Part shown: one piece after another, positions 4,182 through 63,858 of the stretch
Position numbering within the stretch: the first letter of the stretch is position 1
Layout: each line of letters starts with the position of its first letter
NCBI GenBank assembly: GCA_030018495.1
Contig: JASEFS010000001.1
Coordinates: 161,285-225,284 of the forward strand
Origin: Deltaproteobacteria bacterium
GTDB taxonomy: Bacteria > Desulfobacterota > Desulfobaccia > Desulfobaccales > 0-14-0-80-60-11
Reading direction: 5' to 3'
Length of the DNA stretch: 64,000 nucleotides
Program-made: the position numbers and the translations under genes
Notes under the pieces: model-generated
Databases searched by the model: none
What the model saw: only the letters and a program-made list of their open reading frames with translations
Told to the model about the DNA's origin: nothing

Positions 4182-6884
4182 ATGGCCAGAACAAGGGTAA
4201 TAAATTTAGCCAAGGAACTCAAGGTGGACGTTCGGGATCTTTTGCAGCGCCTGAAGGAAGACCTGGGTCTGCAAGTTGACAACTATCTCAGCTCCTTAGA
4301 CGAGGAAATGGCGGAAAAGGTGCGGCAAACTATGAGCCAATTGGCGCCTCAGGTTGAGGAGCTGCGGATAGGAGAAAATATCAAGCGGCGCCGGCGGGTG
4401 GCTCCCGTGGTGGTGACGCCGCCTTCCGCTCCCCGGGAGGGGGAGGAAGAAGCGCCGGCCGAGCCTGCCCCGAAGCCACCGATAAGACCTCTCAAAGCCA
4501 AAAAGCCGAAAGAGGTCAAGGCCCGGGTGGTGTCTTTGCCGGTGCAGGAAAAGGCGCCGGAAATAGAACCGGCCGTTCCTCCGGAAGCAGAAGCCCCGAT
4601 ACCCCCTGTAGAGAAGAAGCCGAAGAAGACGGCGGCAAAGGCAGCGCCTCCTCCAGAGGCCGTGTCTGAGGCCAAGCCTGCCCCCGAGGAGGCCGCGCCG
4701 GAGCGCGCTCCGGCCAAGCGCCTGCGCAAGGCAAAAAAGAAAGACGTCCCGGCTCGAGTTATCAGTCTGCCTCCTGAAGGAGCCGCGGCGCCGGCCCCTG
4801 CCGAAATCACCCCGGAAATAGAGCCCGCAGCGCCTCGAGAAGCGCGGGAGACTCGCCCTGCGGCCGAGGCCAAAGCGGCACCTGAGGTGAAAAAGCCCGA
4901 AGTCAAACCGAAAAAACGGGGCAAACGGGAAGTGGTGGAAATGCCGCCCCGGGGCAAGCCCGTGAAGAAGCGGGAAATCCGGGAGCGGGCCGACCTGTAT
5001 GCCGAAGGTGAAGTCCGGGGCGTTCCTGCCAAGAGAAGGGGTCTCAAAAAGGGAGTCAAGAAGATTTCCCGGGCTGAGCTCACGGTGCCCAAGGCCATCA
5101 AACGGCGCATCAAGGTGGGCGAATCCATTACCGTGGGCGATCTGGCCAAGCGCATGGGCATCAAGTCCAGCGAAGTTATCAAACAGTTGCTGGGCATGGG
5201 GGTGATGGCCAACATCAACTACCCCATCGACTTCGACTCAGCGGTATTGGTGGCCAGCGAGTTCGGCTTTGAAGTGGAGCGGGCCGCCATGCTGGAAGAA
5301 GACCTGCTGGCCGCAGTGGCGCAGGAAGGTGAGTTAACCCCCCGTCCGCCGGTGGTTACCATCATGGGCCACGTGGACCACGGCAAGACCTCGCTCCTGG
5401 ATGTCATCCGGCAGACCCGGGTTACCGAGGCGGAGGCGGGAGGCATCACCCAGCATATCGGCGCATATCACGTCACCCTGCCCCACGGGCGCGGCGACGT
5501 GGTCTTTCTGGACACCCCGGGTCACGAGGCCTTTACCGCCATGCGGGCCCGCGGCGCCCAGGTCACTGACCTGGTGGTGCTGGTGGTGGCCGCGGACGAC
5601 GGCGTCATGGAGCAAACCCTGGAGGCCATCAACCATGCCAAGGCGGCCGGCGTACCCCTGGTGGTGGCGGTGAATAAAATCGACAAAGCCAACGCCAACC
5701 CGGAGCGGGTCAAGCGGGAACTGGCCAACATCGGCGTGGTTCCGGAAGAGTGGGGCGGCGACGTGCTCTTTGCAGAAGTTTCAGCCAAGCAAAAAATAGG
5801 CATCGAAGAGCTGTTGGAAAAAATTCTCCTGCAGGCAGAGATTCTGGAACTCAAGGCGCCCAAGGACATCCCCGCGCAGGGCCGCATCATCGAATCCCGC
5901 CTGGACAAGGGCAGGGGACCGGTGGGCACGGTGCTCGTGCAAAAGGGCACTCTTAAACAGGGGGATTACTTTGTCTGCGGCACCGAATACGGCCGGGTCC
6001 GGGCCATGTTCGACGACCTGGGCAATCGGGTGGAAGAAGCCACTCCGGGAATCCCTGTAGAAGTTCAGGGTTTCAGCGGCGTTCCCGAAGCCAGCGATGA
6101 ATTCCAGGTTATGGAAGACGAACGCAAGGCCAAGCAGATCGCCATGATGCGCCAGCAGAAGCAGCGCGAGGCGGTCCTGGCCCGCATGACCAAGGTAAGT
6201 CTGGAAAAACTTTACCAGCAGATCAAGGAAGGCGCGGTCAAAGAACTCAAAATGGTGCTCAAGGCCGACGTGCACGGCTCCATCGAGGCCTTGACCAAGG
6301 CCCTGTCGGAACTGGGCAACGAAGAAATCAAGGTCAACGTCATCCACACGGGCATCGGCGAAGTGACGGAAAGCGACATCATGCTGGCTTCGGCCTCCGA
6401 CGCCATTGTGGTGGGCTTCAATGTCAGGACCAACCCCAAGGCCCAGTCTCTGGCCGAAAGCGAGCAGGTGGATGTACGGTTCTACGACATCATTTACAAT
6501 CTGCTGAACGACGTCCAGGCGGCCCTGGAGGGCATGTTGGAGCCGGTCATCGAGGAGCGGGTGCTGGGGCAGGCGGAGGTGCGCCAGGTATTCACCATCT
6601 CCAGGGTCGGCACCATAGCCGGCTGCATGGTGCTGGACGGCAAAGTGGAGCGCAACGCCCTGGCCCGGGTGAAACGCCAAGGCGCGGTGGTCTTTGAAGG
6701 CGGCAAAATCACCTCGCTCAAGCGGTTTAAAGAGGACGTGAAAGAAGTGGCCAGCGGCTATGAATGCGGCATCGGCATCGATAGGTTCGGCGAGTTCCAA
6801 AACGGCGACATCATTGAGGTCTATGTGCAGGAAAAGGTCAAAGCCGAGCTGCCGACCCCGGGGGTCCGGGAGGCAAGGGAGTAG
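4182..6884 (+). CDS. infB: Translation initiation factor IF-2
   Basis: G domain VVTIMGHVDHGKTSLLD, DTPGHEAF, NKID. Long P/A/K/E-rich N-terminal region. ATG 4182 (GAGG upstream, MARTRVINLAKEL) preferred over TTG 4134. Confidence 0.95.
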   Translation: MARTRVINLAKELKVDVRDLLQRLKEDLGLQVDNYLSSLDEEMAEKVRQTMSQLAPQVEELRIGENIKRRRRVAPVVVTPPSAPREGEEEAPAEPAPKPPIRPLKAKKPKEVKARVVSLPVQEKAPEIEPAVPPEAEAPIPPVEKKPKKTAAKAAPPPEAVSEAKPAPEEAAPERAPAKRLRKAKKKDVPARVISLPPEGAAAPAPAEITPEIEPAAPREARETRPAAEAKAAPEVKKPEVKPKKRGKREVVEMPPRGKPVKKREIRERADLYAEGEVRGVPAKRRGLKKGVKKISRAELTVPKAIKRRIKVGESITVGDLAKRMGIKSSEVIKQLLGMGVMANINYPIDFDSAVLVASEFGFEVERAAMLEEDLLAAVAQEGELTPRPPVVTIMGHVDHGKTSLLDVIRQTRVTEAEAGGITQHIGAYHVTLPHGRGDVVFLDTPGHEAFTAMRARGAQVTDLVVLVVAADDGVMEQTLEAINHAKAAGVPLVVAVNKIDKANANPERVKRELANIGVVPEEWGGDVLFAEVSAKQKIGIEELLEKILLQAEILELKAPKDIPAQGRIIESRLDKGRGPVGTVLVQKGTLKQGDYFVCGTEYGRVRAMFDDLGNRVEEATPGIPVEVQGFSGVPEASDEFQVMEDERKAKQIAMMRQQKQREAVLARMTKVSLEKLYQQIKEGAVKELKMVLKADVHGSIEALTKALSELGNEEIKVNVIHTGIGEVTESDIMLASASDAIVVGFNVRTNPKAQSLAESEQVDVRFYDIIYNLLNDVQAALEGMLEPVIEERVLGQAEVRQVFTISRVGTIAGCMVLDGKVERNALARVKRQGAVVFEGGKITSLKRFKEDVKEVASGYECGIGIDRFGEFQNGDIIEVYVQEKVKAELPTPGVREARE

Positions 6885-22222: not shown

Positions 22223-22398
22223 AGGCGCCCGCCGGAAAAAATCAGGGCCACCCTCTTGCATAAGCGCCTTTTAATGATTATTTAATAATTAGCAGCCTGA
22301 GGACCGGAGAATCTGCTTCCGGCCCGCCTTAAGCACTGCGACTGGTAGGCGCGTGATGTGGGGGTGGCAGTCCCACCAGGCTGCCCTTAAAATGACCG

Positions 22399-22424
22399 GC
22401 CATGCTGTAAGCATGGCTTTTTTA
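22399..22424 (+). terminator. Rho-independent terminator of an unassigned short transcript
   Basis: gccatgc-tgtaa-gcatggc followed by TTTTTTATTT. Confidence 0.65.
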
Positions 22425-22940: not shown

Positions 22941-23174
22941 ATGGAAAAGCAAGATTTGGAATTGATTAACCGTTATATCGGCATAGACCCGGAACTCAAG
23001 CGCTACATGGATGAACATGCAGAGTTTGAGCGGCTCCTGGAAGAGTACAATCGGCGCCCTTATCTCACGGCCGAGGAAAGCCTGGAAAGGAAGCGCCTGC
23101 AAAAAATGAAACTGGCCGGCCGCGATAAGATCGAGCAAATTTTGGCCAAATACCGGAAGGAAGCGGTTGCATGA
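22941..23174 (+). CDS. DUF465 (YdcH-like) protein
   Basis: 77 aa coiled-coil, [39 protein letters not shown]. Stop overlaps the ilvB start (ATGA). Confidence 0.75.
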
Positions 23175-24888: not shown

Positions 24889-25392
24889 ATGGAAGCATCG
24901 AAAAGCGTGCGCCGTCATACCATTTCCGTGTGGGTGGACAATACCCCGGGGGTTCTGTCCCGGGTCACCGGCCTGTTTTCCGGGCGGGGCTTTAATATTG
25001 AAAGCTTGTGCGTGGCCGAAACGATGGACCCCTCCGTCTCCCGCATCACCCTGGTGACCACGGGTGATGAATTCATCACCGAGCAGATTATCAAGCAGCT
25101 CCGCAAGCTCATCAATACCATCAAGGTGGTGGACCTGAGCGAACTGGGGCACGTAGAACGGGAGATGGCCCTGGTGACCGTGAAGGCCGAAGACAAGTCC
25201 AGGGCCGAAGTGCTGAGAATCGCCGACATCTTCCGCTGCCGGGTGGTGGACGTCAGTCCCAACACCTATACCCTGGAGATCACCGGCAACCATGAAAAAA
25301 TCCAAGCGGTCCTGGGCCTTTTGAAGAACCACGGCATTATGGACGAAGTGCGCAGCGGCGCGCTGGCCATCCAGCGGGCGAAAAAGGATTGA
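24889..25392 (+). CDS. ilvN: Acetolactate synthase small (regulatory) subunit
   Basis: ACT domain HTISVWVDNTPGVLSRVTGLFSGRGFNIESL. Confidence 0.9.
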   Translation: MEASKSVRRHTISVWVDNTPGVLSRVTGLFSGRGFNIESLCVAETMDPSVSRITLVTTGDEFITEQIIKQLRKLINTIKVVDLSELGHVEREMALVTVKAEDKSRAEVLRIADIFRCRVVDVSPNTYTLEITGNHEKIQAVLGLLKNHGIMDEVRSGALAIQRAKKD

Positions 25393-25448
25393 AGGAGTTA
25401 GGAAGCCTCAAGTCACTCACCTTCGGTCGGCATCCGAAAGGAGCAGGT

Positions 25449-25769
25449 ATGCAGGTTTTGATAGTTCTTTCCAGCCCTGACCCGGAAATTAAGTGGAACG
25501 CCGTCAGGTTCGGCAACTTCCTGCTTAACGAGGGCGACGACGTTACCATTTTTTTGAACGGCCCGGCGGTAGATCTTTTCGAGGGAGACAGCGAGCGGTT
25601 TCCCATAGCTGAACAGGCCAAACTCTTTACTCTGAGCGAAGGGGTGTTGGCGGGGTGAGGCAAGTGCATGGCCATCCACGGGGTGGATGCCGGTGAGCAG
25701 CTTAAGATGGGCAACATGAAGTTTCTCTCGGAACAGATGCGTCAGGCCGATAAAATTCTGAACTTTTGA
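25449..25769 (+). CDS. DsrE/DsrF-like family protein with in-frame UGA (putative selenocysteine at codon 70, UGKC motif)
   Basis: ATG 25449 after AAAGGAG. Frame reads through TGA 25656-25658 for 36 more sense codons to TGA 25767-25769. Product: MQVLIVLSS...GVLAG-U-GKCMAIHGVDAG...ADKILNF. Confidence 0.7.
25670..25691 (+). promoter_or_regulatory. SECIS-like hairpin downstream of the in-frame UGA
   Basis: gg(c)catccac-ggg-gtggatgcc starts 12 nt after the UGA. G-rich apical loop, one bulged C. Confidence 0.55.
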
Positions 25770-25850
25770 GCCGGGATGGGCAGACGGGTAAGGGAATTCC
25801 CACCTGTCCGGACCGAGTCCGATCATCAGCGAAAAGGAGAAAGCTGCCTT

Positions 25851-26846
25851 ATGGCGATAAAAATCTACTATGAAGCGGATGCGGATTTAGGAGTTCTGGC
25901 GGGGAAAAAGGTGGCCATTATCGGGTTCGGCTCTCAGGGCCATGCCCAGGCCCTGAATTTGCGGGACAGCGGCGTGGATGTCATTGTGGCCGAAATGCCC
26001 GGCACCCCTAACTATGAGGCCGCGCTGAAATATGGCTTCCAACCGGTGTCCGCCGCCGAAGCCGCGGCCCAAGCCGCGGTGGTGCAGATTCTGACCCAGG
26101 ACCACGTGCAGGCCATGCTTTATGAAAATGACTTGAAGCCGCACATGGGGCCGGGAAAGACCCTGCTCTTTTCCCACGGGTTCAACATCCATTTCGGCCA
26201 GATCATACCCGACCCCAAGGTGGACGTGGTCATGGTGGCACCCAAGGGGCCGGGGCATCTGGTGCGCAGCGAATACGAGAAAGGGGCCGGGGTCCCGTCG
26301 CTGGTGGCCATCCACCAGGAAGCGTCCGGCCAGGCCCTTAAGACCGCGCTGGCTTACGCCAAAGGCATCGGCGCCACCAGGGCCGGAGTGCTGGAGACCA
26401 CCTTCAAGGAAGAGACCGAAACCGACCTCTTCGGCGAGCAGTGCGTGCTGTGCGGCGGCGTGTCCGAACTGGTGAAGGCGGGCTACGAGACCCTGGTGGA
26501 GGCGGGCTACGCCCCGGAAATCGCCTATTTCGAGTGTTTGCACGAACTCAAGCTCATCGTGGACCTGTTCTACCAGGGCGGCATCAGCTATATGCGCTAT
26601 TCGGTGAGCGACACCGCGGAATACGGCGACTACACCCGGGGCAAACGCATCATCACCGAAGAGACCCGGGAGGAGATGCGCCAGATTCTCTATGAAGTGC
26701 AGACCGGGGAGTTCGCCCGGGAATGGATTCTGGAGAACAAGGCCAACCGGCCGGTGTTCAACGCCCTGCGCCGCATCGAGGCCGAGCACCCCATCGAGGA
26801 GGTGGGGAAAAAGCTGCGGTCTATGATGGGGTGGCTGAAGAAATAA
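25851..26846 (+). CDS. ilvC: Ketol-acid reductoisomerase
   Basis: ATG 25851 after [29 protein letters not shown]; class I length (about 331 aa). Confidence 0.95.
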
Positions 26847-27686: not shown

Positions 27687-28472
27687 ATGACAAGAAGACG
27701 CAAAAAGAAGGACAAGCGCCGTTTTCGCGGGGTGTATCTCCTCCCTAACCTCATCACCACGGGGAGCCTGTTCGCGGGATTTTATGCGATTGTGGCGGCC
27801 ATCAACGGCAAGTTCCACGCGGCCGCGGTGGCCATCCTGATATCCCTGCTGCTGGACGGACTGGACGGCCGCGTGGCCCGCATTACCCGCAGCTCCTCGA
27901 ATTTCGGGGTGCAGTATGACTCCCTGGCCGACTTGGTGGCTTTCGGCGTGGCTCCGGCCATCCTGGTGTATTTGTGGGCCTTAAAGCCCTTCAAACAGTT
28001 CGGCTGGGTGGCGGCGTTTTTGTTTGTGGTCTGCGGCGCGCTCCGGCTGGCCCGCTTCAACGTTCAGACCGGCACCATCGACCCCCGCTATTTCAACGGC
28101 CTGCCCATACCCGCGGCGGCCACCATGATCGCCACCTCCATCATTTTTTATTATGAAATCGGCGAATGGGCCCCGGAAAAGTACCTCTATATCCTGGTAA
28201 TGATTTACCTGCTGTCTTTCCTGATGGTGAGCAATATCAAATACGTCAGCTTCAAGAAGGTGGAGCTCTTCAAGCGCCATCCTTTCCAGACCCTGGTGGC
28301 CCTGGTGCTGCTGTTCGTGGTGGTGGCCACCATTCCGGAAACCATGGGTTTCCTGCTGATGGGCGCCTACGTGGCCTCGGGTCCGGTCAGCACCGTTTGG
28401 TACCTCAGGCAGAAAAGGGCGGAGGAAAAGGCGGAGGAAGAGACCCCGGCCCCGAAGCCCAGCGAGCCGTGA
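27687..28472 (+). CDS. pssA: CDP-diacylglycerol--serine O-phosphatidyltransferase
   Basis: CDP-alcohol phosphatidyltransferase motif DGLDGRVAR...SLADLVAFGVAPA. ATG 27687. Confidence 0.9.
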   Translation: MTRRRKKKDKRRFRGVYLLPNLITTGSLFAGFYAIVAAINGKFHAAAVAILISLLLDGLDGRVARITRSSSNFGVQYDSLADLVAFGVAPAILVYLWALKPFKQFGWVAAFLFVVCGALRLARFNVQTGTIDPRYFNGLPIPAAATMIATSIIFYYEIGEWAPEKYLYILVMIYLLSFLMVSNIKYVSFKKVELFKRHPFQTLVALVLLFVVVATIPETMGFLLMGAYVASGPVSTVWYLRQKRAEEKAEEETPAPKPSEP

Positions 28473-28506
28473 AGCTGATATGTCCAAGTAGATAATTGAA
28501 ATATCC

Positions 28507-29361
28507 GTGAAGCTATCGGTTGCTGATAACAACTCAAAAAAACTCGGCCCCTTTCTCTGTGATGCTATTGAGAAATCACAAGATGTGAGGATTGCTGTTG
28601 CCTTTATATCCAATAAAGGTATAAATTTTATTAGAAAATCGCTTGAATATGAACTTTTAAATTTAGGAACAATTGAATTTCTTATTGGATTGGATATTAA
28701 TTCAACAGAACCTAAAGCCATACAAAGCCTATTTGACCTTCAAAAGATTAGTGAAAGTTTAGAATTGTACTGTTATGCTTCACTAGAACCAGCTTCAATA
28801 TATCATCCTAAAATGTATCTTTGCAGAAATAATGATGATATTATCGCTATATTAGGTTCATCGAATTTGACAGAGGGAGGGTTAGTTAATAATATTGAAA
28901 TTAATATAATCATTGAATCAAATGAAAAAGAAGAAATAATTTCTGATATTTATGATACCTACAATAAATTGAAATTTCACCCAAAAAGAGTAATTCCTGA
29001 TCAGGAGTTTCTTGATATATACTTTGATTTGTGGTTAATAGAAAAGAAAAGCGCAAAGATTAAATCAAAGGATAGAAGTTATCAAGAATTAAAAACGAGT
29101 TTTCAAAAGAAGGTTGAGTCATTACAACGTCCTAAACCATCATTGAGAGATTTAGTTGGCTGGCCTAAAATAGTATATGAGCGTTTACCTGAAAAAGACT
29201 TTTCAAATGAACAGATATATAAATTTGAGAAAGAATTCCAAGACATGTATCCGGAAAACAAAAATATCCGGGCAAAAATCAGACAGCAGCTACAAGTACT
29301 CAGAGATATGGGGTTGATCAGGCATCTGGGCAGGTCACACTGGAAAAAAGTGGGATATTAA
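28507..29361 (+). CDS. PLD/HKD-family nuclease-like protein with C-terminal winged-helix-like tail, on an AT-rich islet
   Basis: Single HKD-type motif IYHPKMYLCRNNDDIIAILGSSNLTEGG. C-terminal NIRAKIRQQLQVLRDMGLIRHLGRSHWKK resembles Mrr-N/DpnI-type wH tails. Composition far more AT-rich than the flanks. Confidence 0.7.
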   Translation: MKLSVADNNSKKLGPFLCDAIEKSQDVRIAVAFISNKGINFIRKSLEYELLNLGTIEFLIGLDINSTEPKAIQSLFDLQKISESLELYCYASLEPASIYHPKMYLCRNNDDIIAILGSSNLTEGGLVNNIEINIIIESNEKEEIISDIYDTYNKLKFHPKRVIPDQEFLDIYFDLWLIEKKSAKIKSKDRSYQELKTSFQKKVESLQRPKPSLRDLVGWPKIVYERLPEKDFSNEQIYKFEKEFQDMYPENKNIRAKIRQQLQVLRDMGLIRHLGRSHWKKVGY

Positions 29362-29602
29362 GTATTGCTTTTTTAAAATATCCCTATAAAATCTTAAACA
29401 TTATGACTTCTGACAATTCGAAGGTTATCCAGGCATTAATCCTATCCTTGGCTCTCTTCTTAGCCTGCGCTTAGGCGCGAGGCACTTTCTTCCCATTCCC
29501 TAATCAGCAAAAAAGTGGTACATAATATAAGTTTCGGCCGTGGCCTGTTTGCGGCCTATGCTGTGAATTTACCGGTCATTGGCAATGGCCGAAAATTTTT
29601 CA

Positions 29603-45269: not shown

Positions 45270-48200
45270 TTACCAGAGATTCACAAACGTTTGGGCGCGT
45301 TGGGACCGGGCGCAGGCAGGGCAGAGAGCCCGGCGCACCTGCTTGCCTATGGCCTCATCGCTGCGCTGAACAACGTATTCCATATACCGGGAAGGAGCCA
45401 GAGGCGCGCCGCAGGATTGACAATGTTCGGCTTCCATGTGATTTAGAACCGTGCCGCACAGGCGCACCTCCCGGTAGTCCGGCCCCTCCTCGTAATCAAT
45501 GGCCTGGGTGGGGCAGGCCAGGGCGCAAGCGCCGCAGGCGATGCAGGTATTGGCCGCCAGGGGATAATCGGTAAGGACCCGCTCCGTAGTGGTGATTTGC
45601 GAAAATTTCAGGGCATGCACCCGCATCCGGTGGCAGGTCCGCTCGCAAGCACCACAGCGGATGCAGATATCGCAGCGCAGGCAGCGCTGCGCCTCCTTGA
45701 TGGCCTGAGCGTCGGAATAACCCAATTCCACGGGCGCAAAGGTGGTTTTGCGCAGCTCCACATCCAACATGGGGATCGGGGTGCGGTGATTGGCGGTTTT
45801 CTCCGACGCCGGGATAATTTGAAAAGGCACCTTGCGGCGCTTTTGGGCGCTCATGACCAGGGCCGGACTGGTGGCCCCGGTAATGTAATGGTCGATTTCA
45901 GCCGCAGCCTGTTTCCCGGCGGCAATGGCTTCCACCACCGTGGCCGGCCCGGTGACGGCATCGCCGCCTGAGAAGATGTCTTTCACCTTGGTGCGGGTGC
46001 TGTTGGGCTGGGTGACGATGGTGCACCAGGGAGTGGTTTCCACCGGAGGTTCCGGGAAAGGACAGAAATCCGGCTGCTGGCCGATGGCCGTAATGACCGC
46101 GCCGGCCTCGATGATGTAGTTGCTCTCCGGGATAGGTATGGGACGGCGCCGGCCGCTGGCGTCCGGCCGCCCCAATTCGGCCTGGAGGCATTCCACATGG
46201 GTGACCCGGCCGTCTTCGCCGCCGATCTTAATGGGCACTGTCAGGAAATGGATCTGCACCCCTTCTTCCAGGGCCTGCTCCACTTCCTCCGGGTGGGCCG
46301 GCATTTCGGCCCGGGTGCGGCGGTAGGAGACATGCACCTCGGAGCAGCCCAGGCGCACGCAAGTGCGGGCCGCATCCATGGCCGCGTTGCCGCCGCCGAT
46401 AATCACCACCTTGTCTGCGGGCTTTTCCTTTTTGCCCAGATAAATGTTTCTTAAAAAGGAGATAACGTCATAAACCTGGGGAAAGTCGGTTTCGCCTTCG
46501 ATCTTCAGCTTGTACCCCAGGTGGGCGCCGATGCCCATGAAGATGGCTTCAAAGCCTTGGGCCCTGATCTCCTCCAGGGTAATATCCTGGCCCACCGTAA
46601 CCCCGGTTTTGATTTTCACGCCTAGGGACTTGATAAGGCGGATTTCTTTGCTTACCACCTCCCGGGCCAGCCGGTAGTCGGGAATGGCCGCCATTAAGAG
46701 GCCGCCCGGCTCCTTCTGGGCTTCAAACACCGTCACCTCATAACCTCGCAGAGCCAGGAAATAGGCGCAGGACAGTCCCGCAGGCCCGGCCCCCACGACC
46801 GCCACTTTATGGCCGTTGGCCGGGCCCGGCTGCGGCGGGAAAAAGTTCCCGTGCTTGGATACCCACTCAGACGCGAAGGCCTTCAGATAGCGAATGTTGA
46901 TGGACTCATCCAGATTGGCCCGGACGCATTCCCGTTCACAGGGATGGGGACAGACCAGGCCGCAAACCCAGGGGAAGGGATTATCCTCCCGCATCACCTC
47001 CCAGGCTTCCTGAAAGTTGCCTTGGGCGATCAAGCCGATAAAGCTGGGAATGTCGATGCCGGTGGGGCAGGCCTGATGGCAGGGGGCTAACAGGAGCTTG
47101 GGGCAGGACCGGGCCGGGCAATGCTTGTTCTCCAGATGCAGACGGAATTCTTCCGGAAAGTAATGCAGTGCGGTCAGCAGGGGGTTGGTGGCGTGCCGGG
47201 CCAGTTCGCAGGACCCTTTCATCTTTAGAGTCTGGGCCCGGGTCTGCAGCTCTTTCAAGGTTTCCTGACTGCCGATGCCCTCGGAGACCTGCTCCAATAA
47301 GTTTCTGATACCGAGCAGGGCCTCCTGGCAGGCGGGACACTGGCCCCCCGGCTGGTCCAGTATGAAGTCGAGCTGTTCCCGCACCAGGGAGACCAGACAA
47401 TCCCGTTCATCCAGAACCTGGATAGAGCCGACGGACAGGGTGGCGCCCATTTCTCTGAGGGTTTCATGGGCCAGGTTGATATTCAGCAAATTGAGGGGAA
47501 AGATTCCTCCCAAAGGGCCGCCTACCTGGACGCCTTTGGGGGAGCGGCCGAAACGGAAGCCCCCGCCTTCGCCGTGAATAACTTCGTGCAAAGTGGCGGA
47601 GAGGGGCACTTCCACAAACCCGGGGCGCTCCACCGAGCCGTGCAGACGGAAGATCATGGTGCCCGGGGCGCATTCCACTCCCAGTTTGCGGAACCAGGCC
47701 ACCGGCGTTTGGGCGATAAACGGCAAGGAGGCAATGGTCCCCAGGCTGTGGGTGAGGAAAATCCGCCTGGGATACTGATCCCAGAAGCCTCGGGGCAAAA
47801 GCCCGGTTATCCCCCGGATGAGCAGGTCTTCGTCCTCCATCATGTACCGGCCGTGGCCGGAAACCACTATCACGTCAATCAGCGGTTCCTTCTTCGGCCA
47901 GATGGGCGCGGCCACACAAGCCTTGATGGCCTGCTGGAGCCGTTCCCGAGCCAGCTCATCCTCCTCCGCCAGATAAACTATGGCGGCCTCGGCCTTCAAG
48001 GTTTTGGCGGCCAGGAGGATGCCCTCCAGCACCTGGTGGGGACAGCCTTCCAGCAGGAACATCTCGCTGCTGGCGCCGAGCGTCGGGGTCGCGGCATTCA
48101 CCACCAGGATGGGCTGTTCCTTTTCCACCCGAAGTTCGCACCACCGTTTTCCCAGGGGAGAAGTGGTGATCCGGGCGAATTCGCAAAAACCCGCGGCCAC

Positions 48201-48665
48201 GACTTTCTGGAGAAAGGAGTCAAACCCCTGGCTGAGAAAGGTTTGCAGGCCCTTATAGCCGTCGTAATCCTGGTATTCTTCCCAGGACACGGGGTCGATC
48301 TGTCCCACCAGTTCTGAGATATAGCGTTTTTGAGGTTCGATGAAGTCGCGGAAATCCTTGCCTACCAGCCAGCGCTGCACCGGTCGTTTTTCATCGATAT
48401 GGCTCTGGATGATGCGGGCCGCCATGTCCGGGGTGACCAGCTCATAAAGGTGAGAGCCCGCGGCGTCCCGCACCTCCACCACCACGTCCCGGCCTTCAAT
48501 GCCCCGCCAGCCCACCAGGTGGACTTCCAAGGGCCCCAGGTCGTCCAGGTGGCGCTCTTTCATTTCCGCCAGAAAGGCTTCCTGGACGTCTCTGGCCGCT
48601 TTGAGGCTTTTGCCGGGAAAAGTGCAAATGTTTACACGAAGTAACGGACGCCCATTATTCGGCAT
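45270..48665 (-). CDS. 1131-aa multidomain Fe-S flavoprotein: degenerate NuoF-like module, GltD/NADPH-oxidoreductase-like module and 2x[4Fe-4S] ferredoxin-like C-terminus
   Basis: NuoF-like LLEGCPHQVLEGILLAA and an SLBB-like segment, but no GGAGFP-type FMN loop. GltD-like CPTGIDIPSFIGLIAQGNF...CGLVCPHPCERECVR, VAVVGAGPAGLSCAYFLALRG, VVIIGGGNAAMDAART. C-terminal CLRCDICIRCGACERTC and CIACGACALACP. Confidence 0.85.
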   Translation of the reverse strand: MPNNGRPLLRVNICTFPGKSLKAARDVQEAFLAEMKERHLDDLGPLEVHLVGWRGIEGRDVVVEVRDAAGSHLYELVTPDMAARIIQSHIDEKRPVQRWLVGKDFRDFIEPQKRYISELVGQIDPVSWEEYQDYDGYKGLQTFLSQGFDSFLQKVVAAGFCEFARITTSPLGKRWCELRVEKEQPILVVNAATPTLGASSEMFLLEGCPHQVLEGILLAAKTLKAEAAIVYLAEEDELARERLQQAIKACVAAPIWPKKEPLIDVIVVSGHGRYMMEDEDLLIRGITGLLPRGFWDQYPRRIFLTHSLGTIASLPFIAQTPVAWFRKLGVECAPGTMIFRLHGSVERPGFVEVPLSATLHEVIHGEGGGFRFGRSPKGVQVGGPLGGIFPLNLLNINLAHETLREMGATLSVGSIQVLDERDCLVSLVREQLDFILDQPGGQCPACQEALLGIRNLLEQVSEGIGSQETLKELQTRAQTLKMKGSCELARHATNPLLTALHYFPEEFRLHLENKHCPARSCPKLLLAPCHQACPTGIDIPSFIGLIAQGNFQEAWEVMREDNPFPWVCGLVCPHPCERECVRANLDESINIRYLKAFASEWVSKHGNFFPPQPGPANGHKVAVVGAGPAGLSCAYFLALRGYEVTVFEAQKEPGGLLMAAIPDYRLAREVVSKEIRLIKSLGVKIKTGVTVGQDITLEEIRAQGFEAIFMGIGAHLGYKLKIEGETDFPQVYDVISFLRNIYLGKKEKPADKVVIIGGGNAAMDAARTCVRLGCSEVHVSYRRTRAEMPAHPEEVEQALEEGVQIHFLTVPIKIGGEDGRVTHVECLQAELGRPDASGRRRPIPIPESNYIIEAGAVITAIGQQPDFCPFPEPPVETTPWCTIVTQPNSTRTKVKDIFSGGDAVTGPATVVEAIAAGKQAAAEIDHYITGATSPALVMSAQKRRKVPFQIIPASEKTANHRTPIPMLDVELRKTTFAPVELGYSDAQAIKEAQRCLRCDICIRCGACERTCHRMRVHALKFSQITTTERVLTDYPLAANTCIACGACALACPTQAIDYEEGPDYREVRLCGTVLNHMEAEHCQSCGAPLAPSRYMEYVVQRSDEAIGKQVRRALCPACARSQRAQTFVNLW

Positions 48666-48746
48666 GGTTATCTAGCTCCCTTTTTCGACATCTAAGGGAA
48701 AGCGACCAGGGATGCAAAAAGTTTCCCCCTGCCGCTCGTTATATGG

Positions 48747-49271
48747 TTAACGACCGCTGACTACGGACTCCAGTTCAAAGGCCACGGTCTTGGCGAAGCG
48801 CTCCCGCTTGGTTAGGTCCATTTGCTCCACCCGGCCGAAGCTCAGGCAATGGGTGACGCACTTGGCCACGCAGGCCGGCTCCAGCCCCTGGTCGACCCGG
48901 TCCATGCAGTAGTCGCACTTCACCACCTTGCCGGTTTCCGGGTTCCACTGGGGGGCGCCCCAGGGACAGGCGGTGATGCAGCTCTTGCAGCCCACGCACA
49001 GGGCCGGTTCCACATAGACGATGCCGTCTTCGGGGCGTTTGCGCATAGCGTGGGTGGGGCATACAGGCACGCACCACGGGTCCTCGCAATGGAAGCAGGG
49101 CATGAAGATGAAGGCCTGCCGGGGCAGTCCCGCCACCATTTTGGGGCCCACCGGCATGATCTGTCCCAAACGGGGACCGGCGTTCAGCCCCTTGTTGCTC
49201 TTGCAATGCACTTCGCAGCTCAAGCAGCCGATACATTTTTTCTGATCTTGAAGTAGATAGTATTTGCTCAT
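48747..49271 (-). CDS. 4Fe-4S dicluster electron-transfer subunit (PsrB/PhsB/DmsB-like, short)
   Basis: CIGCLSCEVHC, CFHCEDPWCVPVCP, CVGCKSCITACP, CDYC. 10 nt downstream of the molybdopterin subunit. Confidence 0.85.
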   Translation of the reverse strand: MSKYYLLQDQKKCIGCLSCEVHCKSNKGLNAGPRLGQIMPVGPKMVAGLPRQAFIFMPCFHCEDPWCVPVCPTHAMRKRPEDGIVYVEPALCVGCKSCITACPWGAPQWNPETGKVVKCDYCMDRVDQGLEPACVAKCVTHCLSFGRVEQMDLTKRERFAKTVAFELESVVSGR

Positions 49272-49280
49272 GGGTTATCC

Positions 49281-51374
49281 TCACTTCACCGGACGGACCT
49301 GCACCAGGGTTTCGTCCAGGGCAGGGCTGCCGCCCACTTTATCCGAGATATTTTCCTGCAGCAGGGCATCGCTGGCGCCCTTCAGATAGCAACGGGTCTG
49401 GGCCGGCACGGTCTTGCCGAAGCCGTGCAGCATAAATACCGCTTCCGGGTGAATGAAATCGGTGACCTTGGCCTTGAGTTTGCCGTTGGTGTTCAAGGGA
49501 TTGGAGACCACCTCCACATACTGCCCATCCTTGATGCCCAGCTTGGCCGCAGCCGCGGTATGAATCCACAATTCATTTTCAGGCACAAGCTCATTCAATA
49601 ACAGATTGTTCTGCGTGGACACGTGGGTGTGGGCCGCGCACCGTCCCACCAAGAGGCGGAAGCGGCCTTCAGGCGGCGCAGCCACAGGCTCATACGGGGG
49701 AAAAGAGGGAAATCCGGCTTTTTCCATCAGCGAGCTGACAAACTCGATTTTGCCGGATGGGGTTTTGAATTTGATCCCGTCTTTACGGTCCCACAGAATA
49801 GCCTTATCAGTCAGGGACACAAACCCCTTGGCGTCGAAGTCCTCGATTTTCACCCCCATGTCCTTGAGCTGGAAGTTCCAGATGTCTTCGATGGTCTCAT
49901 AGGGGAAGTATTGTCCCAGCTCCAGGCGGGTGGCTATTTCCTTCCAAATAAGCCAGGCGGGCTTGGTGTCATACCGAGGCGTAACCGCCTGCTTGCGGAT
50001 GCGCAGGGAAGGCTTCAAGCCCGAGACCATTTGAATGGAATCGGCCCGCTCCAGATAAATGGACTCCGGCAGGATGACGTCGGCATACCAGGCAATTTCG
50101 CTGAAGTTGATATCAACGGCAACGATAAGGTCCAGCTTATTCAGGGCCTGCCGCACCTGGGCGCTGTCGGGGATGGACTGAAGCGGCTCAAAGCGGTTGG
50201 CAATGAGAGCCTTGATGGGGTACGGGTCCTCATTAATGATGGCGTGGGCCAGCATCTGGGGGTTGCCGTGGGAGGAATCCGCAATGGGGAAAGCCTCCGC
50301 GCCGGAGCCGTCAAACCGAGGCGCGTTGATCTTGGGGAATTCCTGGCTGACGTATTTGCCGATATCCCCCCGGCCTGCGGCCGCAGCGCCTTTCTTGAAG
50401 AACAACCCACCTTGGGCTTCGATGCTGCCCATCAGGGCGTTCAGGATGATTATGGAACGCCGGAAATAAATCTCATTGGGGTGATGGGCGCCCCGGTAGC
50501 CGTAGTGAAAGACGCAGGCCGGCTTGACTTCGGACATCTCCCGGGCCAAGTTTTTGATTTCCCCAGCCGGGATGCCGGTCTCGGCCTCGGCCCACTCCGG
50601 CGTATAGGGCTCCACGAAGGCTATCAGTTCGTTTAAGCCTGATACCCAGCGCCTGACATAGTCCTGATCATAAAGCTTTTCCTTCAGGATGGTGTGGATC
50701 AGGGCATAATTCAGGGCCAGGTCAGTGCCCGGGCGGATCATCCAGTAGCGGTCCGCCTTGGTGGCGGTGATGCTTACCCGCGGGTCGATATAGGTGAGCT
50801 TGGCCCCTTTGTCCATGGCCTTCAGAAGATTGTTGATGGGCGCGATCTCCAGGGCCTCGAAAATGTTGCGGCCATACATGACGATATGCCGGGTGTTGGC
50901 ATAGTCGACGCCCACCTGGGGGTCGGCATAGCCTGTCAGGCTGCGGAACGCGGTGTTCACGGACCCCTTGCACAACGCGTCGTGGGTGAAGTGGTTGGGG
51001 GAGCCGATGGCTTTCATGAAGGTCTTGCTGATGTGGGTGTTGAGGTTGGTGCGCTCTCCGAACACCACGCTGTGGCCGCCGTGCTCCTGGATGATGGCCT
51101 TGAGCTTGTCCGCCACATAGTCCAGGGCCTCCTCCCAACCGGCGCGGCGCCACTGGCCCGCCCCCCGCTCTCCGGTGCGGATCATGGGATATTGGGGCCG
51201 CTCATGGTCGTGCAGCAGGGCCAACCCGGCCGAGCCTTTGGCGCACAGCGCGCCCTCAATGCCAGGCACATGGGGGTTCCCCTGTATCCAAACCACGTCG
51301 TCGTTGGCCACCATCACCCGGATGGGGCAGCGCACGGTGCACATGAAACATATGCTCCAGACTTCGGTTGACAT
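49281..51374 (-). CDS. Molybdopterin (bis-MGD) oxidoreductase catalytic subunit, Psr/Phs/Ttr/Arr-like, apparently cytoplasmic
   Basis: N-terminal CFMCTVRCPIRV...CAKG FeS motif immediately after the Met, with no twin-arginine signal. Candidate Mo ligand context HFTHDALCKGS (Cys, not Sec). Confidence 0.9.
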   Translation of the reverse strand: MSTEVWSICFMCTVRCPIRVMVANDDVVWIQGNPHVPGIEGALCAKGSAGLALLHDHERPQYPMIRTGERGAGQWRRAGWEEALDYVADKLKAIIQEHGGHSVVFGERTNLNTHISKTFMKAIGSPNHFTHDALCKGSVNTAFRSLTGYADPQVGVDYANTRHIVMYGRNIFEALEIAPINNLLKAMDKGAKLTYIDPRVSITATKADRYWMIRPGTDLALNYALIHTILKEKLYDQDYVRRWVSGLNELIAFVEPYTPEWAEAETGIPAGEIKNLAREMSEVKPACVFHYGYRGAHHPNEIYFRRSIIILNALMGSIEAQGGLFFKKGAAAAGRGDIGKYVSQEFPKINAPRFDGSGAEAFPIADSSHGNPQMLAHAIINEDPYPIKALIANRFEPLQSIPDSAQVRQALNKLDLIVAVDINFSEIAWYADVILPESIYLERADSIQMVSGLKPSLRIRKQAVTPRYDTKPAWLIWKEIATRLELGQYFPYETIEDIWNFQLKDMGVKIEDFDAKGFVSLTDKAILWDRKDGIKFKTPSGKIEFVSSLMEKAGFPSFPPYEPVAAPPEGRFRLLVGRCAAHTHVSTQNNLLLNELVPENELWIHTAAAAKLGIKDGQYVEVVSNPLNTNGKLKAKVTDFIHPEAVFMLHGFGKTVPAQTRCYLKGASDALLQENISDKVGGSPALDETLVQVRPVK

Positions 51375-63114: not shown

Positions 63115-63858
63115 ATGAAATCCTGTAAGGGCGCGCCTGGCCGCGCCGCAGCCGGCCCGCCTCTCATCTCTATCATTATTCCCATTCTGAACGAAAAAGA
63201 AAATCTAAAGGAACTTCTCGGTGGTCTCCCTGCCGCCCCGGATGTGGAAATCCTGCTGGTGGACGGCGGCAGCACCGACAGTACCCTGGAGGAGGCGGCC
63301 CTTTTCCCGGGCGTGCAGATTTTTGGCAGTTCTCCGGGCCGCGGCCTGCAGATGAACACCGGCGCCCTGGCCTCAGGGGGGGAAATTCTCGTCTTTCTGC
63401 ATGCGGACACCCGGATGGGGGCCGCGCACCTGGAAGCCCTGCGCCGGGAGGCCGCGGACCCTTCCTTTGGCGCGGGCGCGTTCGCCTTTGCCCTGACGCC
63501 GGACCTGCCGGCCCTGCGGTTTATCACCCGGGGAGTCAATCTGCGCTGCCGCGTCTTTGGCCTGCCCTACGGCGATCAGGCCCTCACCGTCAGGAGGAGC
63601 CTCTTTTTCCGGCTGGGGGGCTACGCCCACCGCCGCCCTGAAGACCTGGACCTGGTGCTCCGCTTGAGAAAGCATACCCGCCTGCGCCTCCTTAAGCCGC
63701 CGCTATCCACCTCCGCCCGACGCTGGCTGGAACAGGGCTATTTCAGGACCACCATGAACAACTGGCTGTTTTTGGTCCGCCATCTGGCCGAACGCATTTT
63801 CACCCGCCGCTGGCCGGAAAAGGGGGACATGGAGAAAGTTGTTGGGGGAGGGGGCTAA
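63115..63858 (+). CDS. Family-2 glycosyltransferase, TIGR04283-like
   Basis: ISIIIPILNEKENL...LVDGGSTDSTLE...LFLHADT...GLPYGDQALTVRRSLFFRLGGY. Confidence 0.7.
   Translation: MKSCKGAPGRAAAGPPLISIIIPILNEKENLKELLGGLPAAPDVEILLVDGGSTDSTLEEAALFPGVQIFGSSPGRGLQMNTGALASGGEILVFLHADTRMGAAHLEALRREAADPSFGAGAFAFALTPDLPALRFITRGVNLRCRVFGLPYGDQALTVRRSLFFRLGGYAHRRPEDLDLVLRLRKHTRLRLLKPPLSTSARRWLEQGYFRTTMNNWLFLVRHLAERIFTRRWPEKGDMEKVVGGGG

Follow-up and report, generated by a model that had tools for sequence, protein, structure and literature searches.

The 64,000-nt stretch of DNA analysed here, referred to as the window, very probably contains a selenocysteine-encoding gene of the DsrE/YchN type, in which an in-frame UGA is predicted from comparative sequence analysis to be read as selenocysteine (Sec). 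The gene is located between ilvN and ilvC, and the following features of the region, all on the forward strand, are relevant.

24889..25392, plus strand: ilvN, acetolactate synthase small subunit (Pfam ACT_AHAS_ss / ALS_ss_C), 56 nt before the gene
25437..25443, plus strand: Shine-Dalgarno-like AAAGGAG, 5 nt upstream of ATG 25449, read from the sequence
25449..25769, plus strand: DsrE/YchN-like selenoprotein gene, 106 codons plus stop, predicted Sec at codon 70
25656..25658, plus strand: in-frame UGA, predicted Sec codon U70; TGA in 47 of 48 sequences; aligned with the nearly invariant Cys of the wider family and with TusD Cys78
25665..25667, plus strand: TGC codon for Cys73, the putative resolving partner in U-G-K-C; C73 is at least 90% conserved
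25673..25689, plus strand: conserved SECIS-type hairpin, 7-bp stem CAUCCAC/GUGGAUG with a GGG loop at 25680-25682
25767-25769, plus strand: terminal stop TGA, ending the 106-aa joined product
25851..26846, plus strand: ilvC, ketol-acid reductoisomerase (Pfam KARI_N / KARI_C), 81 nt after the gene

The ORF track halts at the TGA at 25656-25658, and the same frame then stays open for 36 further codons (GKCMAIHGVDAGEQLKMGNMKFLSEQMRQADKILNF) up to the terminal TGA. When the coordinates were re-read from the window, the in-frame UGA, the open extension and the product of 106 residues agreed with the initial annotation. In translation G-K-C follows the TGA, which results in a single-Sec UxxC motif, U70-G-K-C73. 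The start of the gene, however, had been placed at TTG 25389, a codon that overlaps the ilvN stop, and is replaced here by ATG 25449. This ATG is the true start because homologues all begin with M-Q/N-I/V-L at its position and because it yields the product of 106 residues; the AAAGGAG in front of it is in agreement. With U written as C, the joined product matches Pfam DsrE (PF02635) with 30.7 bits against a cut-off of 22.7 and across the whole profile (1-116 of 116), whereas the 69-aa piece alone reaches 13.8 bits over half of the profile and remains under the cut-off. An end-to-end match was obtained for the joined product only.

By itself, the raw pattern of a TGA followed by an open frame is unexceptional in the window. 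The pattern is not rare, since the window holds 249 in-frame TGAs that are preceded by 40 or more open codons and followed by 20 or more, and since single-sequence folding of the 71-nt region 25650-25720 was no better than chance (z = 0.15 against shuffles). What lifts the gene above chance is the codon-usage score of the 36 codons after the TGA (0.50 bits/codon, the top value among the 25 candidates listed) together with the end-to-end Pfam match and the comparative evidence.

A scan of one genome per species for encoding loci revealed 47 loci, which together with the window make up 48 sequences. Codon 70 is TGA in 46 of the 47 related loci and TGC in the remaining one, so that TGA is found in 47 of 48 sequences when the window is included; TAA or TAG never occur at this position, while the terminal stops vary (25 TGA, 15 TAG and 6 TAA). 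The gene architecture of the window is shared by 46 loci, and tblastn alignments span residues 1-106 in 43 loci. After the TGA the frame is open and conserved up to a common ...ADK/R-I-L/V-N/S-F/Y end. Mean pairwise identity at codon positions 1, 2 and 3 amounts to 0.72, 0.73 and 0.52 after the TGA compared to 0.77, 0.86 and 0.51 before it. Third codon positions are the most variable ones downstream of the TGA, which is a coding pattern, and the other two frames after the TGA are open in just 4 and 18 of 42 loci. This conservation indicates that both halves of the gene are under purifying selection. The initial annotation had also considered that homologues might end at the equivalent position; instead, conservation of the 36 codons past the TGA extends to 46 other loci.

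These comparisons bear on the simplest alternative, namely that the UGA is a genuine stop, which would leave a fragment of 69 residues and possibly a separate peptide of 33 residues beginning at ATG 25668. Gene callers make exactly this 69 + 33 split, and ATG 25668 does open an ORF of 33 codons. Nevertheless, the internal stop is TGA across the loci while the terminal stops vary, and the internal start is unconserved, as orthologues frequently have Leu or Gln in place of M74 (CLGIHG, CQDIHG). Moreover, the first 69 residues represent half a DsrE profile below the cut-off, Cys forms of the protein run uninterrupted, and the strands 86-88 and 102-105 as well as the helices 71-76 and 90-99 of the confidently modelled fold described below are all encoded after the UGA. 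We consider a genuine stop extremely unlikely. A reassigned genetic code was rejected as the cause of the in-frame UGA, since this genome uses UGA as an ordinary stop, with ilvN and the selenoprotein gene itself each terminating in TGA.

One locus with an otherwise syntenic ilv operon, L047, carries a copy that has decayed past the TGA (positions 6001-6297; GTG GAG changed to CTG TAG, plus a 1-nt deletion), which reflects either gene loss in that lineage or an error in the assembly of this MAG. A true decay by stop codon and frameshift in such a relative would fit the view that the window copy is a decaying pseudogene as well, or that its TGA is an assembly error. Yet the identical sequence is present on an independent Logan assembly (L049), the TGA is common to 46 species, and purifying selection acts on both halves of the gene. 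Decay or misassembly is effectively refuted already, and we give it hardly any credence.

Selenocysteine at codon 70 is further supported by the Cys-type homologues. A search of approximately 5.8 billion proteins yielded 369 relatives, nearly all of which have exactly 69 residues and are cut at the same place, whereas the few full-length relatives of 106 residues read ...A/G-C-G-K-C.... Eight close full-length Cys forms with this A/G-C-G-K-C motif are uninterrupted (P0001-3 and P0121-5). An exhaustive profile search led to 338 cluster representatives, and most of the top-scoring ones are stand-alone proteins of about 106 residues. In the 75-82 more distant relatives of this length, conservation of both C70 and C73 reaches at least 90% within the consensus ACGTCLxxR, and 80 of 82 wider-family members match PF02635. 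The initial annotation had stated that Cys-type members place a cysteine at the position of the UGA. This holds for the eight close forms with CGKC as well as for the wider family, with a consensus as given there. Within the close subfamily more than 350 truncated Sec-type entries of 69 aa stand against about nine full-length Cys forms; in the wider family of about 106 aa, full-length Cys forms predominate. The near-exclusive Sec content of the close subfamily may point to a chemistry that specifically needs selenium. As a separate observation, in L054 (5646-6321), L055 (1137-1812) and L057 (84-769) the Cys-type genes P0002/P0003 immediately follow the gene of a CGGC-domain protein (PF08821), a context unlike that of any Sec form seen. 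In L054 the gene of the CGGC-domain protein is preceded by a YcaO-family gene.

Besides the codon itself, the RNA structure downstream of it is conserved. In the window, the hairpin extends to 25670-25691 with C25672 bulged (GGCCATCCAC-GGG-GTGGATGCC); this extended form starts at the 12th nt past the UGA, and the conserved 7-bp stem lies 14 nt after the UGA. We aligned 44 Sec-type sequences without gaps over a stretch that begins 9 nt ahead of the TGA and ends 48 nt past it. RNAalifold independently found one 7-bp hairpin in this alignment, at columns 27-33/37-43 (corresponding to 25673-25689), with a 3-nt GGN loop whose G34 and G35 are invariant among the 44 sequences. The stem is paired to 96.1%, compared to 25-54% in controls in which the 3' partner was slid by 1-3 columns. 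Compensatory changes were detected at three of the seven pairs, with A-U, C-G and G-C at the variable basal pair 28-42 and single cases at 29-41 and 30-40, and none of 500 column shuffles matched the observed pairing or covariation score. As these changes shift the encoded residues jointly (I...D, V...D, L...E, A...G, I...N), the RNA structure constrains the protein sequence. The lower-stem extension, i.e. columns 24-26 with 44-46, is paired in 11-55% and unconserved. A hairpin with a G-rich apex after the UGA had been proposed beforehand, and the comparison substantiates it as a conserved and covarying structure with a small, GG-containing apical loop. An apical loop of 3 nt is at the small end of the range for bacterial SECIS elements. 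A small apical loop containing G has been described as a defining feature of these elements (PMC1088965). No SECIS-type family in Rfam was matched in gathering or E-value mode. The only Rfam match near the gene, to the raiA-hairpin in the spacer between the gene and ilvC, was non-significant (E = 1.6) and was rejected.

The Cys forms provide a natural control for the SECIS role. Whereas 6-7 pairs are retained in the 46 Sec forms and the 17-mer has an average minimum free energy (MFE) of -7.6 kcal/mol, the seven Cys forms with recovered DNA have 4-7 pairs and 17-mer MFEs between -1.0 and -5.7 kcal/mol. In the sole Cys form that keeps all seven pairs, the GG loop is gone and has become CAU. The hairpin is thus degraded or altered in seven of the seven Cys forms examined.

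Hairpins after stop codons can in general stimulate read-through. The UGA could for this reason also be decoded without selenium if Trp, Cys or Arg were inserted by a near-cognate or suppressor tRNA and the hairpin acted only as a generic stimulator. The codon-position conservation, according to which the downstream frame is clearly translated, would fit this equally. None of selA, selB, selD and tRNA-Sec was found in these 64 kb (ARAGORN, Rfam, and Pfam on 20 large ORFs), which would fit both this reading and a genuine stop. However, the site is that of a catalytic and nearly invariant cysteine, which Sec alone replaces functionally, and the small GG-containing loop and the spacing are typical of a bacterial SECIS. 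Furthermore, TGA rather than a sense codon is maintained in more than 350 lineages, as judged from the truncated entries, and the orthologous family in Desulfovibrio vulgaris shares its genome with SelD and other selenoproteins. Read-through without selenium is consequently highly unlikely in our view.

No second selenoprotein gene was identified in the window when TGA-joined ORFs were scored for codon usage. The best other Sec candidate, a TGA at 63375 on the minus strand, was rejected as it is antisense to a real gene on the plus strand. In the region 45270-51374 (minus strand), the window also encodes a molybdopterin oxidoreductase of 697 aa that is uninterrupted and has no in-frame TGA. 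It adjoins a 1131-aa NuoF-like/GltD-like flavoprotein and the gene of a TauE/SafE family (PF01925) membrane protein. If it is of the formate-dehydrogenase type, this oxidoreductase is the Cys form rather than the Sec form.

To place the protein structurally, profiles were compared with the PDB. Searches with the single protein or the narrow family profile (A3) gave nothing relevant, and the broadened profile (A6) alone reached YchN, TusD and DsrE. With this wider-family profile, E. coli YchN (1JX7) was matched with E = 9.3e-11 over positions 10-106, with CKTC aligned to the CGTC motif, followed by BT1422 (2FB6; E = 0.0013), TusD (2D1P; E = 0.005) and DsrE (2HY5; E = 0.07). In the profile alignment, family position 70 corresponds to TusD Cys78 (chain residue 90 of the tagged 2d1p_A), which is the persulfide-carrying active-site cysteine of the TusBCD relay. 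An AlphaFold (AF2) model of a Cys form with 78% identity, based on the wider-family alignment, reached a pLDDT of 98.1 and a pTM of 0.91, and in this model residue 70 ends the strand 66-70, directly before the helix 71-76. Foldseek with this model listed YchN 1jx7 first (TM 0.84, 25% identity) and after it DsrE-family structures only. An AlphaFold model from eight close sequences had a pLDDT of 64 and a meaningless Foldseek output, and it was discarded.

The mechanism we propose for the gene follows that of characterised bacterial selenoprotein mRNAs. The mRNA, which is probably co-transcribed with ilvBN and ilvC, would carry the UGA at codon 70, and the 7-bp hairpin with the GGN loop 14 nt downstream would act as a bacterial SECIS. 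By analogy, this hairpin would bind SelB-GTP-Sec-tRNA(Sec) and selenocysteine would be delivered to the UGA, which would pre-empt termination by release factor 2. The predicted product is a stand-alone, single-domain DsrE-fold protein of 106 residues and about 11.5 kDa, with E. coli YchN as its nearest counterpart. The U70-G-K-C73 motif is located at the end of a strand and the start of a helix, with U70 at the site of the sulfur-carrying cysteine of TusD/DsrE. Judged from this position and motif, the most likely chemistry is that of a redox-active selenol/thiol pair, in which either a selenenylsulfide would form or U70 would briefly carry sulfur or selenium, with resolution by C73.

The genomic context of the gene differs between lineages. 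Between ilvN and ilvC no terminator-like sites were found, and co-transcription with ilvBN and ilvC is plausible. The order ilvB-ilvN-gene-ilvC-psd-pssA-leuA is present in the window (and hence in L049) as well as in L001, L017, L047, L050, L051 and L056, of which L050 and L051 are Desulfobacca acetoxidans-type contigs and L056 is a short Cys-form contig. In Desulfovibrionaceae the genes lie in unrelated contexts, e.g. between DHBP-synthase (PF00926) and OmpH-family genes. No neighbour is common to the whole family, and the synteny blocks are lineage-specific. The position between ilvN and ilvC, which had been noted as unexpected, is therefore real but confined to the Desulfobacca-like clade and not a trait of the family. 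It is a clade-specific curiosity and the sole unexplained aspect of the gene. Within this clade the gene is kept between ilvN and ilvC in seven loci whose flanking proteins are 74-91% identical, and the placement is retained even after the conversion of Sec to Cys in one lineage (L056). Such retention through divergence could reflect a real functional link, in which a YchN-type selenol/thiol protein would serve branched-chain synthesis or the UGA would make part of the operon selenium-sensitive, although we regard such a link as rather improbable. If it were true, it might concern, for example, sulfur supply or repair for the Fe-S dehydratases IlvD and LeuCD.

Several further elements were observed around the operon. 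A hairpin in the spacer between the gene and ilvC (25783-25808; z = -1.39) was rejected, as neither the length nor the sequence of the spacer is conserved in syntenic loci. Upstream, an ORF of 77 codons (22941-23174, plus strand) ends in a stop that shares 4 nt with the ilvB start (23171). In L017, L047 and L050 this ORF occupies the equivalent place with 72-77% identity, and no Pfam match was present in the contig look-up. About 0.8 kb upstream of ilvB, the Rfam skipping-rope RNA (RF02924) was matched at 22292-22384 on the plus strand with 37.6 bits (gathering score 36.7), and a terminator-like hairpin follows at 22398-22418. Between pssA and leuA, the region 28400-29500 forms a low-GC island with 27-39% GC compared to about 60% in the flanks. 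It contains a gene (28507-29361, plus strand) for a PLD-like/NgoFVII-type restriction-endonuclease domain fused to DpnI_C. Neither of the syntenic loci L017 and L050 has the island at this point, and it is therefore probably a recent insertion.

The read-through gene has consequences for annotation. On the source contig, which is also present in Logan SRR23186779, it is called as two pieces of 69 aa and 33 aa, and stubs of 69 residues are often named 'sulfur reduction protein DsrE' in protein databases. Truncation by automated callers had been anticipated by the initial annotation, and the database entries of 69 aa indeed exceed 350. Because the subfamily is stored as such stubs, the active site and half of the fold are missing from most databases. 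Our analysis thus corrects, with good support, an error of annotation that is pervasive. To the existing prediction it adds a SECIS consensus backed by covariation, a natural control in which the hairpin decays where the UGA becomes UGC, a confident placement of the fold in the YchN branch of the DsrE superfamily, and the placement of the predicted Sec at the position of the sulfur-carrying cysteine of TusD/DsrE. Taken together, the SECIS, the control, the fold and the active-site placement lead to a concrete biochemical hypothesis for this selenoprotein family and for E. coli YchN.

Selenoproteins of this type have been described before. The Sargasso Sea study (PMC1088965) reported a selenoprotein family named 'DsrE-like protein' (Pfam02635) with a UxxC motif, and in Desulfovibrio vulgaris a DsrE-like selenoprotein was listed beside SelD and three FdhA (PMC1794560). 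A review from 2026 considers the DsrE-like family 'predicted with high confidence' and its function uncharacterised (PMC13188914). These three sources bear out the statement in the initial annotation that DsrE-like proteins are among the listed prokaryotic selenoprotein families. The published family (Zhang, Gladyshev and co-workers) and the window gene share the Pfam family PF02635, the one-Sec UxxC motif and a SECIS-like hairpin that immediately follows the UGA. The Nitratidesulfovibrio loci L034-L040, which represent the D. vulgaris group, share 62-63% identity with the protein of the window and have the same TGA, and therefore the window gene belongs to the known family. This tie was made via the Nitratidesulfovibrio loci and not via the published example accession WP_014524487.1. 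In contrast to the published examples, the window copy originates from a Desulfobacca-like lineage and is set between ilvN and ilvC. It adds another member to the known DsrE-like selenoprotein family and no new mechanism.

YedF (TIGR03527), a protein of selenium metabolism, combines a TusA/SirA-like domain at its N-terminus with a DsrE-like domain at its C-terminus that carries CGxC (PMC5322559). The C-G-x-C signature in the DsrE-like domain is shared, whereas the window protein is a single domain of 106 aa without a TusA/SirA-like domain. The window protein did not match the NCBIfam YedF model TIGR03527, and 8 of 30 relatives matched it weakly, with a best E-value of 0.025 and scores far under the family threshold. 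TusD (YheN, 2D1P) and DsrE (2HY5), which are subunits of the TusBCD/DsrEFH sulfur-relay complexes, have the same fold and an active-site cysteine at position 70. However, TusD lacks the second cysteine of the CxxC that is present in the U-G-K-C protein, and the similarity is weak, as the E-values of 0.005 for TusD and 0.07 for DsrE indicate. Moreover, no DsrF/DsrH or TusC/TusB partner genes were found near the gene, which is flanked by ilvN and ilvC here and by unrelated genes in Desulfovibrio. E. coli YchN (1JX7, in which it is a hexamer) is, like the window protein, a single stand-alone DsrE-fold domain with the CxxC at the junction of strand and helix; the two are similar in length (117 compared to 106 aa) and alike in being without established function. 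YchN differs in having Cys rather than the predicted Sec, and the identity is only about 25%. Within the DsrE superfamily we assign the window protein to the YchN type, as distinct from the DsrEFH/TusBCD subunits and from YedF.
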